From Candidatus Bathyarchaeota archaeon (lineage in GTDB: Archaea; Thermoproteota; Bathyarchaeia; Bathyarchaeales; Bathycorpusculaceae), in contig CAVZIW010000003.1 in the NCBI GenBank assembly GCA_963775465.1, positions 256,001-320,000 on the forward strand: a stretch of 64,000 nucleotides of DNA, read 5' to 3'. A model generated the notes under the pieces. The model had not been told where the DNA came from, did not search any database, and worked only from the letters and a program-made list of their open reading frames with translations. The translations under genes were made by a program, and so were the position numbers. Shown here piece after piece: positions 36,057 to 62,654 of the stretch; within the stretch, counting starts at the first letter, position 1, and each line of letters opens with the position of its first letter.

Positions 36057-37559
36057 CTAATCGGTTGCATAAATGATTTTTCCGTATTTGCCAGCGACAG
36101 GGTATGAAGAGTCATTGTAGACAATGTCTAAGTGCATACCGTAAGTTGCCAGTGCACTCTGCAGACTGTTCCAGACTTGCGGTGATGTTGTATCTGCCTG
36201 CCAGAGTCCCCATATGTTGTCTTGTGGGTTACGCATTCCCCAACCATAATTCTGGGGTAAAACAAGAGCCGCCTCTGCTTCGATACCGCCATTAACTACA
36301 CTTTGATTGTTAATCGTGTCAGTCCATAACTTCTGGAGCGCCTCAAAATGCTCCTCCTGCAGGGTGCCGTAAGGATTATTGGCTGGATAGGTTGGGTAAT
36401 TGAAGACTACAAGGTATTTTGCGCCTGCTTCATAGGCTTGGTGTAGTTGGTTATAAATTTCTTCTCCGCTGCCTAAGTAGGGGCCGTATTGTCCATTTGG
36501 AAAATTAATGCGTTCTGGATACGTATATTTCCATGTGATGATTGCGCCCCAATCTTTACTCTGCATAGATGCGGCTCCACGCGACAAAGCAATATCCTGG
36601 GTGGTAGTATGGTTCCAGCCTAGCTCTGCAAACACAACGTCATAGCCACCTTTGTAATCGTACCAGTAGAGTGCATAATCAGAGGTGAACGCTTTCGAGG
36701 TTGTCTGGCTGTGTAGCCAGCTGGTGCTGTTTTGGATTGTGCCAACAAAAATCTGTGCTGTTTCATCGTAGTTCTGGAAGGGCTTTGCTGCCATTATCTG
36801 TTCGTACGAATCAATTTTTGGAAGGATACTGGTGTCGTTTAGTTGTGATGCTATATTGCCGTCATTATCGAGTTGAAAGACTGCTCCGTCAGGTTGAATA
36901 ATATAATCTGTATACTCTAAGTGGCCACTTGAGTTTTGATCTCCTAACTTAATTTGAATTGTTCCGTCTGTGTTATAAGATATACTAGTATTGGCAGTTC
37001 TTACATGTACGTAACCATCGTTGGCAAAAAATAGGTGTGTACCGTTCTCCTCAGTAACTTCTATTGCTTGAGCTTTTCGAATTATGCTATGCGTTTCTGG
37101 GTTGTACATGTTAACATCTATTGCATCAAGCATTTTGCCGCCTGGTTCATCGTCGAAATAGATGCCTAACAGATTGTTGCCCCATACATTGCTAGTTGAA
37201 AGAAACTCGTTGATGTATTGCCTGTACGTTGGCACTGCGCTGAAATAAACAATAATGTGAAGTCCATTGTCGACTGCGTAGCGGCAAATGGTGTTTGTGG
37301 CGTCAATATTTTTTTGGAGGTTGCCAGATTGTAGGATAAAGAGGTTGGTGTAGTTTTTGACTTTGTCGATTAGCATTTTGGCTTCGGTTACATTCTCACC
37401 GCAATAGGTTACACCGATATAGACTGATGCGTCTGGCAGCGGCTGAGTTGGTTCGTTGATGCTGTTGCCTGCGAAGAGACCGCTGTTGAATAGAAAAAAA
37501 GAGGCTAACAGAACGGCTGCAATAGCTAAAACGGCTGAAACAGCGACTAATCTTCTCAA
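36057..37559 (-). CDS. Secreted protein of a DEPGG / FTSDYALYWYDY family (paralog 1)
   Basis: N-terminal signal/TM; motifs shared with 38082-39449. Confidence 0.85.
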   Translation of the reverse strand: MRRLVAVSAVLAIAAVLLASFFLFNSGLFAGNSINEPTQPLPDASVYIGVTYCGENVTEAKMLIDKVKNYTNLFILQSGNLQKNIDATNTICRYAVDNGLHIIVYFSAVPTYRQYINEFLSTSNVWGNNLLGIYFDDEPGGKMLDAIDVNMYNPETHSIIRKAQAIEVTEENGTHLFFANDGYVHVRTANTSISYNTDGTIQIKLGDQNSSGHLEYTDYIIQPDGAVFQLDNDGNIASQLNDTSILPKIDSYEQIMAAKPFQNYDETAQIFVGTIQNSTSWLHSQTTSKAFTSDYALYWYDYKGGYDVVFAELGWNHTTTQDIALSRGAASMQSKDWGAIITWKYTYPERINFPNGQYGPYLGSGEEIYNQLHQAYEAGAKYLVVFNYPTYPANNPYGTLQEEHFEALQKLWTDTINNQSVVNGGIEAEAALVLPQNYGWGMRNPQDNIWGLWQADTTSPQVWNSLQSALATYGMHLDIVYNDSSYPVAGKYGKIIYATD

Positions 37560-37767
37560 ACCATGCTCTCTCTATGATGGCATAAAGAGCATTTTTTATA
37601 AACTTTTGTAATAATTTGCTCGGCAAGTTCAGATTGCTGGTCCAGTTGGTGTTGAAGTACATTTACTGCAACCTAAAACACGCTAATAATGTGACCTTTC
37701 TTTTTTAAAATGCAGGGTCCATTAAGCTTTAAACAAAGATTCCTATCGAGGTCAAAGAAATTAACGC

Positions 37768-37995
37768 TTATTTTTCACATTTCTTACAGTTCTTTACGCC
37801 CACAAAAAAACCAAATAAGGCTCCGCACAACAGAAACGTGAAGGTAAATGAAATCGGAGTATAATCATATTTTAAGATTATTTGAATATCAACATAAATG
37901 CCGAGAAGCATGAACCCTACGGCAAACAGCAAAACAGCGCTAAGAACAATCAAAGCCTTACGCGCATTTTTGTTAATATTGACCAATGCGGGCAC
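37768..37995 (-). CDS. Small two-TM membrane protein
   Basis: 75 aa hydrophobic ORF. Confidence 0.55.
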   Translation of the reverse strand: MPALVNINKNARKALIVLSAVLLFAVGFMLLGIYVDIQIILKYDYTPISFTFTFLLCGALFGFFVGVKNCKKCEK

Positions 37996-38081
37996 TTCTT
38001 TATGATCATTCTTGAACGTTTAATGTCTTTGGTTCAGTTTGGTTATAAAGTTTTGCAGTCAATCTTTTAGGAAGATTTTTT

Positions 38082-60372: not shown

Positions 60373-60376
60373 AACT

Positions 60377-61849
60377 CTAGTTTCGCGGGATAACTGCTGA
60401 GAATGGTTCTGGCTCCATCTGCACGGATGCGAACACGGCTAATGCTATGCTCCAGAAGACGTCGTCATGTGTGCCTCCAGGGTGCGAATAGCCTATGGTG
60501 CCGTCTTTGCGTAGCTCATAGCGTTCGACATTTAGTTCGCTACAGATGTCTCCTCTGCAGGGTTTTTCCCAGTTTAGTTAGGGATAGTAGAATTTGCCGC
60601 TGGTCATGCGTTGCTTTAGAAGGCTTGCCATCTCGCTTTTTCGGGGCACACTAAAATTGACGCCCTCCGCGTTCTCAATGCCCGCCGCTTCCATTTCAGC
60701 AATAAAACTTGGACCTTCACGGGTAAAATCCACCCGAATACGTTCAAAGCCTCCCCAGCGATCCTGTAGAGCCTTAATGTAGCCTAAAACGTTGGCATAC
60801 ATCGTGGGCTGTTTGAAAATTTCGAGGTGACGCAGATACAGAGTATCATTTCTCCTCTCTATCACCGAGAAAACAGTGTAGTCTTTGGTTTGAGCGAGGT
60901 CTAACCCGGCAAAAAACTCGCCTTCCTGCGTAACTTCAGGATCAAGTAGATCAAGCTCTTCCATGCAATTTTTTACTGTGCCAATGCAGGAAGCAATCAA
61001 ACTCTGCGTTAACCAAACGTTGTCATCCTCAACCCATTCCGCCTCCATCTCACGTCTCCAACGAGAAAGATCATCGCCCATCTGAATCTTTATCTCCTGG
61101 AAAGTATTGAACAATAGAGGTCCGTTAGGACTTAGGGCTTTTTCGATAGTGACATGAGAGGTTTTAAATTTGCTAAAGTTCTTGTGGGTAAAAATCTTAT
61201 AAAAGATGCTGTCGGTGTCCCAAGGCGTACTGCTACACACGAACTTGCCATCAGTCGTTCCAAGCGTATAGAGAATGGCATCGTAGAGATCCTGATCATT
61301 AGCCACGAAATTAAACTCATCCGCGTAAACCACATCAAAGGTTGGACCTCTGATGGTTTCAGGATTGTTTGGGAAAGCCTCAATGCTGCTTCCGTTAACA
61401 AAATCGATTTTCGTTTTCTGTGGCTTGAAAACAATTCCTGCTGGAAGCTTATGAGCGAATGCTGCTATGCGCGATATGATTCTTTTTGTTTGACGCCAAG
61501 AGGGACCCACAATTCCGATCGAAGCTTTTGGATGTGTAACCGCATATTTTAGAAGTAACGCCGATATCGTTGCGGTTTTGCCGCTTTGTCTGCACCACCG
61601 GGCAGCGGTGAACTGGTTATTCTCAAAGATTTCAGCGAACTCTTTTTGGTATGCATAGGGCTTGAAACCTAAAACCTGCTCAAGGAAATCAACGGTATTA
61701 ACGCTTAATTGCTGCGTCTTTTCAATGGCTGTTTGCCTTAACCGAAGGTGTTCCTGCTCAATCTCATGAGATTTAGCTAGAAACTGATTGGGCCGCAGGG
61801 TTCGAGCTTCTTTCTTTGAGCTCTTTGAGCGTCTGTTGTAATTGCGCAT
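60377..61849 (-). pseudogene. Terminase large subunit with in-frame TAA at 60578-60580
   Basis: PYAYQ, Walker A RQSGKT, Walker B VYADE, SSTP, nuclease GLDLA..KD; HDD motif lies after the stop. Confidence 0.9.
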
Positions 61850-62234
61850 TTTCTTTTTCCATCTCCTCTAGTTTTCGTTCGACATCGCGATAATGGACAT
61901 AGTCGGCTAAAAGTTCCTTATACGTCTTAGAAATGTTTGCTACAGTCTGCAAACGTTGAACCTCCAGCCTATTCAGCCCAGGTTCAACAGACGCCTTTAG
62001 GGCACCTGCTAACATTTTCAAGGCTTCTTCAACACTAAGCAGTTCCTTTGGAATGGGTATAGAGGTGTTTACGTAGCCTTCAGTTTGAAGCCGCAAACCC
62101 AAACGTTGAGATTTTGTAATTACCGCTTTAGGCGTTTTCTTAAGTTTAGACGCTATTTCGTCAATGTTTAAGTTAGCGTTGACAAGTTCGTTTAATTCAG
62201 CTTCTTCTTGAGCCGTCCATACTTTGCCCGTCAA
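61773..62234 (-). CDS. HTH + coiled-coil protein, putative terminase small subunit
   Basis: GKVWTAQEEAEL...IASKLKKTPKAV..K.QRLGL; overlaps the terL start. Confidence 0.65.
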   Translation of the reverse strand: MTGKVWTAQEEAELNELVNANLNIDEIASKLKKTPKAVITKSQRLGLRLQTEGYVNTSIPIPKELLSVEEALKMLAGALKASVEPGLNRLEVQRLQTVANISKTYKELLADYVHYRDVERKLEEMEKENAQLQQTLKELKERSSNPAAQSVSS

Positions 62235-62654
62235 TGTTGTTCAGGGGATTGTTTGCTAAAGGCAACTTTTAACTCTAGTTGCATCCAACAAATAAAAAAT
62301 GGCACACCAATTTGCTCTGCATAAACCGTAACTAATCTACACACCTCATTAATCGTCGTTTGGAGACATATAGAAAAAATTAACATTATTTTGAGGTAAC
62401 TAGCGATTCAAATAGAAACCAACATACTCACCCATCCCATCCCACCCACCCAACATAGCCTACAGATAAAATCCCACTCTCCCCCATCCCAACAGAGACA
62501 GAAAAAAAGCCAAAAACCAAAAACCAAACGCCCCCAACAACAAAAGATGGGACGGGAGACTCCTAATGCACCCCATCCCCACAAAAAAAGAAAACTTTGT
62601 TTGCGATTGTTTTTTAAGAAGCAGACGGGTAAATTGAGCTGAAGGCGAATCAAA

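Follow-up and report, generated by a model that had tools for sequence, protein, structure and literature searches.

A strain-variable island at the 3′ end of a terminase gene in a Bathyarchaeota genome, probably the debris of two unrelated kinds of mobile element

How did pieces of a viral packaging gene, of a Cas1 gene and of a short G-rich element come to lie between the accessory genes of one archaeal island? The question arises in a 64,000-nt stretch of a Candidatus Bathyarchaeota genome (hereafter the window, C3:256001–320000), which belongs to a metagenome-assembled genome (MAG) of 2.4 Mb in 15 contigs that is 92% complete and was designated G000. A sequence-only reading of the interval from the secreted-protein genes at 36 kb to ubiD at 62.6 kb had proposed a single family of small mobile elements that combines a solo Cas1 with a packaging terminase and builds an integron-like cargo array through three shared segments, namely the 3′ end of the large terminase gene terL, a Cas1-like 3′ end and a GGGGG element. 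We compared the window with a close relative, G022 (96–98% DNA identity to G000), with a genus survey of 41 genomes, with 61 genomes in the terL search and with metagenome contigs from runs X1, X2, X9 and X11. All genomes compared are MAGs, the relatives with named records being Bathyarchaeia or Bathyarchaeota MAGs from peat, soil and hot springs, and the co-location counts given below (terL tails, Cas1 with terL, motif with Cas1) were made by hand among the matches listed.

The best explanation, to which we assign a probability of about 0.65, is a strain-variable island at the terL 3′ end that consists of the debris of two unrelated kinds of mobile element, one of which (55.9–61.8 kb) would derive from a virus and the other (40.5–54.2 kb) from a transposon family. 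All three recurring parts exist far beyond chance, with three matches of the 21-nt core of the GGGGG element, one in each of its three copies, against 0.00 expected. That they occupy many spacers was overstated, as they form ~11 junctions in 26 kb and fall into two separate, non-interleaved blocks, the terL tails at 55.9–60.7 kb and, at 40.5–54.2 kb, the Cas1 tail, the GGGGG element and a 13-nt motif that the earlier reading had missed. Recurring terL 3′ ends were confirmed, since tblastn with a read-through terL (X at the stop) returned three, the gene, tail 2 and tail 3, whereas the supposed several Cas1-like 3′ ends reduced to one (53903–53750). No further terL or Cas1 fragment was found in the window by tblastn at E ≤ 10 and word size 2, and a fourth terL-tail candidate at 57793–57701 was discarded as not significant (E = 0.18–6.5).

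The terL 3′ end beside ubiD

Next to ubiD, on the minus strand, lie a terS-like gene encoding a small helix-turn-helix (HTH) protein of 153 aa (61773–62234) and, overlapped by it at its start, terL (60380–61849). The small protein matches the PHROG 323 HTH regulator (1.4e-7) and, below the cut-off, a GcrA-like Pfam family; its cluster (cl1, eight members) adjoins the terL cluster (cl0) in all eight loci compared, a gene position that points to a TerS role. The terL gene matches Pfam Terminase_6N (3.5e-18) and comprises ~490 codons when read through an in-frame TAA at 60578–60580, after codon 423. Its G022 ortholog is 99% identical, open and 490 aa long, with TTA where G000 has TAA, and terL tail 3 also encodes Leu at this position. 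The G022 protein matches PHROG_2 (1.2e-36) as well as the T4 gp17 ATPase chain and the G20c nuclease chain in the PDB, and terL is a genuine large terminase with ATPase and nuclease domains.

Genomes may hold several members of the terL family: the search for it gave matches in 44 of the 61 genomes, as many as nine in a single one. The family is also present in viral and proviral records of 35–44 kb. Tail-tube and baseplate-like genes lie upstream of terS in two relatives (L032/L034) and in viral records, and a conserved 480-aa gene follows terL in seven viral or proviral loci, two of which have extra open reading frames (ORFs) in between; three virus proteins of L032 (462, 339 and 411 aa) matched no Pfam or PHROG family. 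Among the scanned window ORFs at 36–62 kb no structural family (portal, major capsid, tail) was matched, so the window holds a provirus remnant, which retains the large terminase of a Caudoviricetes provirus and lacks its portal, capsid and tail genes. G014 has terS, terL and ubiD arranged in the same way, the encoded proteins being 80% (terL), 72% (TerS) and 84% (UbiD) identical. DNA homology between G014 and G000 ends exactly at the terL stop, and the distance from terL to the next shared gene is 2.1 kb in G014 against 29.4 kb in G000, which delimits an island at ~31–60.4 kb anchored on the terL 3′ end. The terS-terL pair is probably the remnant of a tailed archaeal virus that has been resident since before the species diverged.

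Tail 2 (58547–58855, minus strand) covers terL aa ~388–490 at 91–92% aa identity (tblastn E 2e-57), and the old, decayed tail 3 (55940–56230, minus strand), which was also found in G022, covers aa ~394–488 at 50–51% aa identity with several stops (E 9e-19). Tail 2 carries copy B (58545–58898, minus strand) of a 354-nt direct repeat whose copy A (60378–60729, minus strand) is the terL 3′ end itself; the copies share 92% identity, ~260 nt of them being identical, and are the only terL-tail pair repeated at the DNA level. The 5′ ~110 nt of tail 2 are diverged terL sequence, ~70% like the gene, and may reach back to aa ~345, while the remainder is identical and includes the TAA. Repeat identity ends a few nucleotides before the stop at every tail aligned, and the last codon and stop differ between the two copies (AAC TAG vs AGC TAA).

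Exactly between these repeats lies insert 1 (58549–60381), a 1,833-bp indel relative to G022 that encodes small ORFs of 112, 92, 76 and 63 aa, with a PIN-like N-terminus that, judged by eye, is split by a frameshift. It is missing from G022:C44 and is skipped by a 6.2-kb X11 contig (joint 58548→60382), and contigs from X1, X2 and X9 carry it, which shows that it is not an assembly artefact. Neither its ORFs nor the small ORFs at 54–56 kb matched Pfam or PHROG. In a five-way alignment, the single G022 copy consisted of the 5′ part of the gene, the ~260-nt core and the 3′ flank of tail 2, a geometry that would be expected from recombination of the resident terL end with DNA bringing its own terL-end fragment. 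A second, small strain indel was seen at 55063/55064, where G022 and an X11 contig have 283 nt more than G000.

Two recognizable cassettes follow terL, each then followed by a terL 3′ fragment. One is a VapB-VapC (PIN) toxin-antitoxin (TA) cassette (57805–58465, plus strand; Pfam VAPB_antitox 9.4e-14, PIN 1.9e-17), in which a small antitoxin gene and a PIN toxin gene are adjacent as in VapBC systems, and the other is an AAA_14/DUF4143 ATPase cassette (56226–57533, minus strand; Pfam AAA_14 1.1e-35, DUF4143 5.6e-20). In the genus, nine tails lie within 5.2 kb downstream of a full terL on the same strand, in 6 of 41 genomes including G000. TA genes stand beside terL tails at six further loci in five other genus genomes, four of the six being counted between terL and a tail or between two tails. 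They comprise a ribbon-helix-helix (RHH) plus PIN pair between two tails with no terL nearby (L051), a MazE-like plus PIN pair between two tails (L047), a MazE-like gene (L048), a PIN gene (L050) and AbiEii (L049), each between terL and its own tail, and a MazE-like plus PIN pair directly after a tail (L036). At L049 and L051 the cassette occupies the entire interval between the repeats.

Taking these observations together, we propose that the slot just after terL may be a recombination hot spot. TA and ATPase cassettes would be taken up by recombination, homologous or site-specific, in the final ~260 conserved nt of terL; the entering DNA would bring a substitute final codon and stop, a terL 3′ copy would remain on the far side, and successive entries would push the older tails outward, tail 2 and then tail 3. 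The terL gene of G000 would have gained its nonsense codon later. The tails could instead be the last remains of tandem related proviruses after deletion, the cassettes being surviving viral accessory genes, and the many terL copies per genome, their presence in long viral records, the varying tail starts that deletion end points would also produce, and a 5′ part of tail 2 that may extend to aa ~345 are all compatible with such an origin; TA genes, moreover, are common viral accessory genes. We regard it as unlikely, since the 1,833 bp that distinguish G000 from G022 form a clean, repeat-flanked module without a viral core gene, repeat identity ends just before the stop at every aligned tail, whole inter-repeat intervals are filled by the cassettes of L049 and L051, and no tandem pair of full-length terL genes was present in the loci examined.

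Cassette entry at the terL end meets difficulties of its own. Neither insert 1 nor the rest of the window encodes an integrase or recombinase (Pfam, PHROG, PF00589). Both G000 repeat copies have TAA where G022 has TTA, which would require gene conversion, incoming DNA that arose locally, or a duplication in the very recent past, and a simple single-crossover entry of foreign DNA predicts the shared TAA only with gene conversion. Loss of insert 1 from G022 by recombination between the repeats would fit the alignment equally well. By hand sorting, ~17 terL tails of the genus have no full terL nearby, and none of five complete or near-complete viral records has an extra terL tail. A related model, which places the viral attP within terL and takes the tail for the far provirus end, was rejected because these five long records have one terL and zero tails.

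Temperate-phage 'moron' hot spots, in which a fixed slot beside a packaging gene collects defence and TA genes, resemble this arrangement, and the extra ORFs after terL in two of the seven viral loci are alike; the slot described here differs in sitting on a two-gene remnant, at one locus across species and with a ~29-kb island. A parallel in geometry is offered by integrative elements that target gene 3′ ends of the tRNA type, such as archaeal integrated mobile genetic elements (iMGEs; PMC6563490). There too the insert has direct repeats of the target 3′ end on its two sides, the insert itself supplies the intact end that the gene retains, and repeated use yields a series of fragments, as at terL. 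Here, by contrast, the target is the terminase of a provirus remnant and the inserts are 0.7–2.3-kb TA or ATPase cassettes without an integrase. The ~260-nt identical core is unusually long and thus fits homologous as well as site-specific recombination.

The motif array and its Cas1 tail

The second block is organized around the 13-nt motif ATTAAAWTTTAAT, which has six sites at ≤1 mismatch, all within 40577–51307, against 0.68 expected in the window; none of 100 shuffles reached six. Site J1 adjoins GGGGG copy 1 (40520–40576), an internally shortened terminal inverted repeat (TIR), the two together spanning 40520–40589 on the plus strand. J2, with one mismatch, adjoins copy 2 (41728–41820, the left TIR) within 41715–41820 on the minus strand. 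J3 and J4 are 20 nt apart at 45333–45378 and have outward inverted CCAACC-type arms, which may represent a solo-TIR or deletion footprint. The degenerate J5 (47786–47798) and J6 (49566–49578) follow, and J7 (51295–51307), the centre of a palindrome already described in the earlier reading, directly adjoins copy 3 (51200–51294, plus strand), the right TIR of a 9.6-kb TIR-bounded segment. Copies 2 and 3 form a ~95-nt imperfect inverted pair around these 9.6 kb. A weak motif variant with two mismatches (54234–54246), not significant alone, is possibly the far end of the element to which the Cas1 tail belongs. In the genomes compared, the motif typically stands between two arms that open with simple repeats of the (CT)n, (CA)n, CCAA or CCCAAA type, as the TIRs do, and with such arms on both sides most motif sites look like junctions of two abutting elements.

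The Cas1 remnant (53750–53903, minus strand; tblastn) is a decayed C-terminal tail of ~45 codons with two TGA codons, 76% identical over 37 aa to a tail on C5 (E 5e-11) and matching the full-length Cas1 of G016 at E 3.6e-5. Four other Cas1 tails occur in the genome, on C5, C4, C2 and C15. From the Cas1 3′ end to the element terminus extends a cargo slot (51308–53749, minus strand) that encodes secreted or anchored proteins of 197, 173 and 298 aa with weak Pfam matches only (Big_13 1.4e-4, below the cut-off). This layout, in which the motif at 51295 is followed by a simple-repeat arm, three genes for secreted proteins and the Cas1 tail, is like that of the intact elements described below. The cargo between the motif sites comprises an S-adenosylmethionine (SAM) methyltransferase (40617–41525) and a TrmB-like regulator (41866–43890), both assigned by Pfam, an esterase-like hydrolase (44023–45024; Pfam near or below the cut-off), two paralogous secreted proteins (45879–47248), a PIN plus MraZ/AbrB-like pair (47972–48726; PIN 1.4e-7, MraZ-like 6.8e-4 and below the cut-off), a membrane protein (49000–49413) and a beta-helix surface protein (49613–51103).

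Motif sites behave as strain break points. G022 diverges from G000 right after J1 (the 40577 site) and rejoins it inside the degenerate J5 (47786), so that 891 nt with one ORF (by eye) replace 7.2 kb containing the methyltransferase, the TrmB-like regulator, the hydrolase and the two secreted proteins. Two G022 contigs end on motif sites, C44 on J7 and C78 on the equivalent of J6, and X11 contigs diverge at 51294 and 51309. The 7.2-kb and 1,833-bp differences and the X11 contigs bear out the earlier claim of a strain-variable cargo array bounded by conserved segments.

Elsewhere in G000, two contig ends (C6:311190–316754 and C10:101553–106865) are 99.5% identical over 5.3 kb and represent either a true duplication or two strain variants within the MAG. 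They had been considered as a cassette swap, and the difference between them proved to be a ~250-nt indel 17 nt inside the arm beside a motif site, which is uninformative on cassette swapping.

Intact Cas1 elements in related genomes

Full-length Cas1 relatives of 324–346 aa match Pfam Cas_Cas1 (1.9e-45, 6.7e-36 and 2.4e-51), and their conserved His and acidic motif align by eye with solved Cas1 chains, of which the best relative is the CRISPR-type archaeal 4n06 (7.7e-17), the M. mazei casposase 6opm scoring 9e-13. Inverted repeats of 32–305 nt bracket cas1 in five of eight distinct loci (L028/L037, L029, L030, L038 and L041), with cas1 broken in L038. At three loci of the window genus the 13-nt motif stands at the outer edge of both inverted repeats, and these same three 20-kb loci contain exactly two copies each of its 11-nt core, at the repeat edges. 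One tail-only element, L057, is 3.2 kb long, carries the motif at either end together with TIRs of ~35 nt and retains nothing of Cas1 but a tail, so tail-only derivatives exist as bounded units; within the window genus the same-looking 13-mer thus marks both ends of three intact elements and one tail-only element.

Insertion itself could be followed in one empty/occupied pair. The 5.28-kb element L041 is absent from G081, where its flanks are contiguous, and (G)ATTTAATTTTTAT occurs once in the empty G081 site and on both sides of the occupied site, which shows a 13–14-bp target duplication next to perfect 32-nt TIRs. For the intact elements the putative Cas1 target-site sequence is ATTAAATTTTAAT. 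For the G016 element L029, no contiguous left and right flank was found in the 41 genus genomes; the left flank in G061 ends at the motif, and the right flank is multi-copy. Judged by eye, the L041 element (ends ~4900 and ~10200; compared with L141 of G081) seems to be inserted in an ORF whose DLIFM...HH stretch is typical of SAM methyltransferases. Just inside one end of L028 (14297–14510, G016) are eight tandem copies of a 20-nt unit, which may be iteron-like and a possible replication origin.

In the intact elements cas1 points toward one terminus, and the stretch from the 3′ end of cas1 to the TIR holds variable cargo. ORF clusters spanning the five TIR-bounded elements consist of cas1 and three companion families, c1–c3; terL is not among them. 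Companion c1 (~160 aa) has DxD and His motifs, a non-significant Pfam match to an archaeo-eukaryotic primase (AEP)-like family (E 0.017) and an AlphaFold model of mean pLDDT 53.7, for which Foldseek returned several AEP polymerase or primase chains, all weak (best E 0.0096), a hint that it may be AEP-primase-like. Companion c2 (~300 aa) shows Walker A/B-like motifs by eye with sub-threshold AAA Pfam matches, and c3 is a third conserved small protein. The element ORFs otherwise matched only Cas1, a Clp protease, DUF2299 and sub-threshold zinc-ribbon families; no polymerase family was matched in the ORFs scanned, the largest of which are 344–366 aa, family B DNA polymerase (PolB) hidden Markov models not having been run directly.

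At the level of whole genomes, the motif occurs 154 times in the 41 genus genomes against 22 for its reversed control, with 125 of these sites in the 17 genomes that have Cas1 matches and 29 in the 24 that have none, and at 18 of the 50 Cas1 places checked it is found 0.4–2.8 kb past the 3′ end of cas1. Motif counts follow Cas1, and terL tracks neither Cas1 nor the motif. One family with a solo Cas1 and a packaging terminase would account for the occurrence of all three parts within 21 kb in G000 and G022, and for G003, where two Cas1 tails and two motif sites are 7–11 kb away from a terL; these, the window (with G022) and G003, are the only two loci at which, in a hand comparison of the matches listed, a Cas1 match falls within 10 kb of terL. 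Such a family is very improbable and is already contradicted by the genus survey. The five TIR-bounded elements share cas1 and c1–c3 and not terL; the seven viral or proviral loci conserve tail genes and the 480-aa gene, cas1 not having been specifically searched for there; the terL-rich G014, G005 and G015 have six to seven terL matches each, zero Cas1 matches and zero motif sites; and the blocks in the window are not interleaved. The supposed distinctness of the island from casposons and proviruses is not supported either, one block being casposon-like (without PolB) and the other a provirus remnant.

We return to two unrelated kinds of debris. The block at 40.5–54.2 kb would be an array of Cas1-less, decayed copies derived from a PolB-less family of casposon-like transposons. 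Intact members of this family in relatives carry a Cas1 integrase, c1–c3, a cargo slot downstream of cas1 and TIRs. Insertion, presumably catalysed by Cas1, would duplicate the 13–14-bp AT-rich target, and later insertions would land beside earlier ones because each insertion regenerates the target on both sides, giving 'motif-cassette-motif' arrays, in which cargo-only derivatives may have been moved in trans. The GGGGG element would then be one TIR subfamily and the Cas1 tail a leftover of the integrase gene.

Against this origin of the block it must be set that neither a full cas1 in the 92%-complete G000 MAG nor any remnant of c1–c3 in G000 at E ≤ 0.01 was found, which makes the array a relic that is not active on its own and whose history is inferred from relatives. 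The bracketing inverted repeat is missing at three of the eight full-length cas1 loci, and L038 is without the motif. In the window a matching TIR pair occurs on one segment only and the other inter-motif segments have unlike ends, so that 'one cassette = one transposon' does not hold cleanly and the array is presumably old and rearranged. The central A/T of the motif, which looked direct in four of four bounded elements, cannot tell target duplication from TIR tip in the window; its use as a direct/inverted marker was dropped, as neighbouring sites alternate and the base is independent of flank type.

The motif may alternatively be the site of a tyrosine or Xer-like recombinase that shuffles modules in a dif- or integron-like manner, the Cas1 elements merely using or carrying it. 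It is near-palindromic and the centre of longer imperfect palindromes, one breakpoint between G000 and G022 falls within a degenerate site and not on its border, many inter-motif segments have no matching pair of TIRs, and motif-like sites stand 1–4.3 kb away from two of the six tyrosine-recombinase matches of the genome (C2:6269–6739 with a site at C2:5217; C5:17271–17696 with a site at C5:21958), a proximity that may only reflect shared islands. No recombinase gene is present in the window or among the element ORFs scanned, however, the motif's abundance follows the presence of Cas1, and the 13–14-nt duplication with perfect 32-nt TIRs of the L041/G081 pair is a transposase-type product and not that of conservative exchange, which leaves the recombinase site quite unlikely. 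We give least credence to the motif and its flanks being an ordinary regulatory element, a TATA-like promoter or a terminator hairpin, and not a mobile boundary. It is AT-rich, intergenic and palindromic, and its bare 11-mer core is found 12 times in the genome where base composition predicts ~8.5, yet the 13-mer exceeds its reversed control ~7-fold in the genus, stands exactly at the outer edges of the 32–305-nt inverted repeats around cas1, is related to the 13–14-mer duplicated on insertion and is the point at which strain differences break.

The target duplication of 13–14 bp resembles that of casposons, which is 14–15 bp in A. boonei, and the elements have in common with them a Cas1 integrase (in the relatives) and TIRs. 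The target, a 13-nt AT-rich near-palindrome, is not a tRNA or EF-2 3′ end, and the companions are the Walker-like ~300-aa and AEP-hint ~160-aa proteins. The published descriptions give for casposon families 1–4 a CRISPR-unlinked Cas1, TIRs, a sequence-preferred target, variable cargo and a size of 5–10 kb, all shared here, and report a family B polymerase in all known casposons (PMC4046053; PMC6452270). With ORFs of ≤366 aa in elements of 5.3–10 kb and no polymerase family matched by the ORFs scanned, the present Cas1 lineage fails this defining feature of casposons.

The nearest precedent, compared by description only, is the 'family 5 casposases' from hot-spring metagenomes, which in the part of the publication available (PMC9755687) are Cas1-solo proteins near subtype I-A Cas1, with TIRs on several contigs and a DNA polymerase B only on the most distant contig. 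Our best solved relative is likewise of CRISPR type, and L041 comes from a MAG labelled DRTY-6. That part of the publication mentions no target duplication, empty site, non-autonomous derivatives or arrays (PMC9755687).

With integrons the array has in common its promiscuous cassettes, a recurring short site and differences between close strains. No IntI was found, the six PF00589 matches in the genome all lying off C3, and the cassettes here hold one to several genes in both orientations; the 13-nt motif with its simple-repeat arms is presumably unlike attC sites, for which no model was run. CRISPR arrays also combine a Cas1-family integrase, a short duplication and a repeat-insert-repeat series, but the repeat here has 13 nt, the inserts are 0.02–3.6 kb of genes and the motif spacing is 20–3,605 nt. 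A repeat search of the window found no CRISPR array with regular 25–40-nt repeats and 30–40-nt spacers, no cas2, leader or effector genes were seen in it, and the window array is not a CRISPR array. In the literature searched, no published description of Bathyarchaeia Cas1 elements or of terL-tail TA cassettes was found.

Further features and biological meaning

Left of J1, three genes (36057–40410) encode secreted or anchored proteins of 500, 455 and 290 aa without a Pfam family above the cut-off. Secreted or anchored proteins form three paralogous pairs (36057–37559 with 38082–39449, 45879–46520 with 46559–47248, and 51444–52037 with 52175–52696), for which no Pfam family was matched; several of these paralogs share a Pro/Thr-rich linker and a C-terminal membrane anchor, and an inverted repeat links 39344–39437 with 52732–52825. 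Further left, an ORF of 695 aa (32364–34451), P-type metal-transporting ATPase-like as its translation is judged by eye, lies within the ~29 kb that G014 lacks and may be further island cargo. Between terS and ubiD is a C/A-rich dispersed repeat of ~160 nt (62414–62595) containing complementary CCCATCCC / GGGATGGG-type segments, with seven more copies of 72–80% identity on C1, C3, C8 and C12; it has no Rfam match and could be a small RNA, a regulatory element or a mobile element. The only RNA in the whole window is a tRNA-Glu at 20.5 kb (Rfam gathering threshold, ARAGORN), with none at any junction.

The anatomy of these loci also allows a bolder picture, which we hold tentatively and consider possible rather than probable. 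A branch of Cas1 transposons without PolB would have its cargo-only derivatives moved in trans into a regenerated 13-bp target, building kilobase-scale repeat-cassette-repeat arrays, and the domesticated terS-terL pair would start packaging toward the island.

The adaptation machinery of CRISPR presumably descends from casposons, which the descriptions cited above define by Cas1 together with PolB. The elements documented here form a Cas1-solo transposon lineage without PolB that has a defined 13–14-bp target and tail-only derivatives in arrays, and they make it testable whether Cas1 mobilizes cargo-only DNA and whether arrays are built by re-use of the target. Differences between strains of the abundant soil and wetland Bathyarchaeia in their surface proteins and regulators seem to stem in part from this lineage. 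A two-gene virus remnant can, in addition, persist across species, and TA cassettes can use its 3′ end, that of terL, as a landing pad; for annotation, short Cas1 or terL tails in these genomes are to be read as mobile-element scars and not as evidence of CRISPR or of an active provirus. If the bolder picture is true, the arrays would offer a present-day counterpart to the stage that has been proposed to lead from casposon insertion to the earliest CRISPR arrays, an integron-like exchange of gene cassettes would distribute surface proteins, regulators and TA modules, and packaging by terS-terL into helper-virus capsids may make the island highly transducible.

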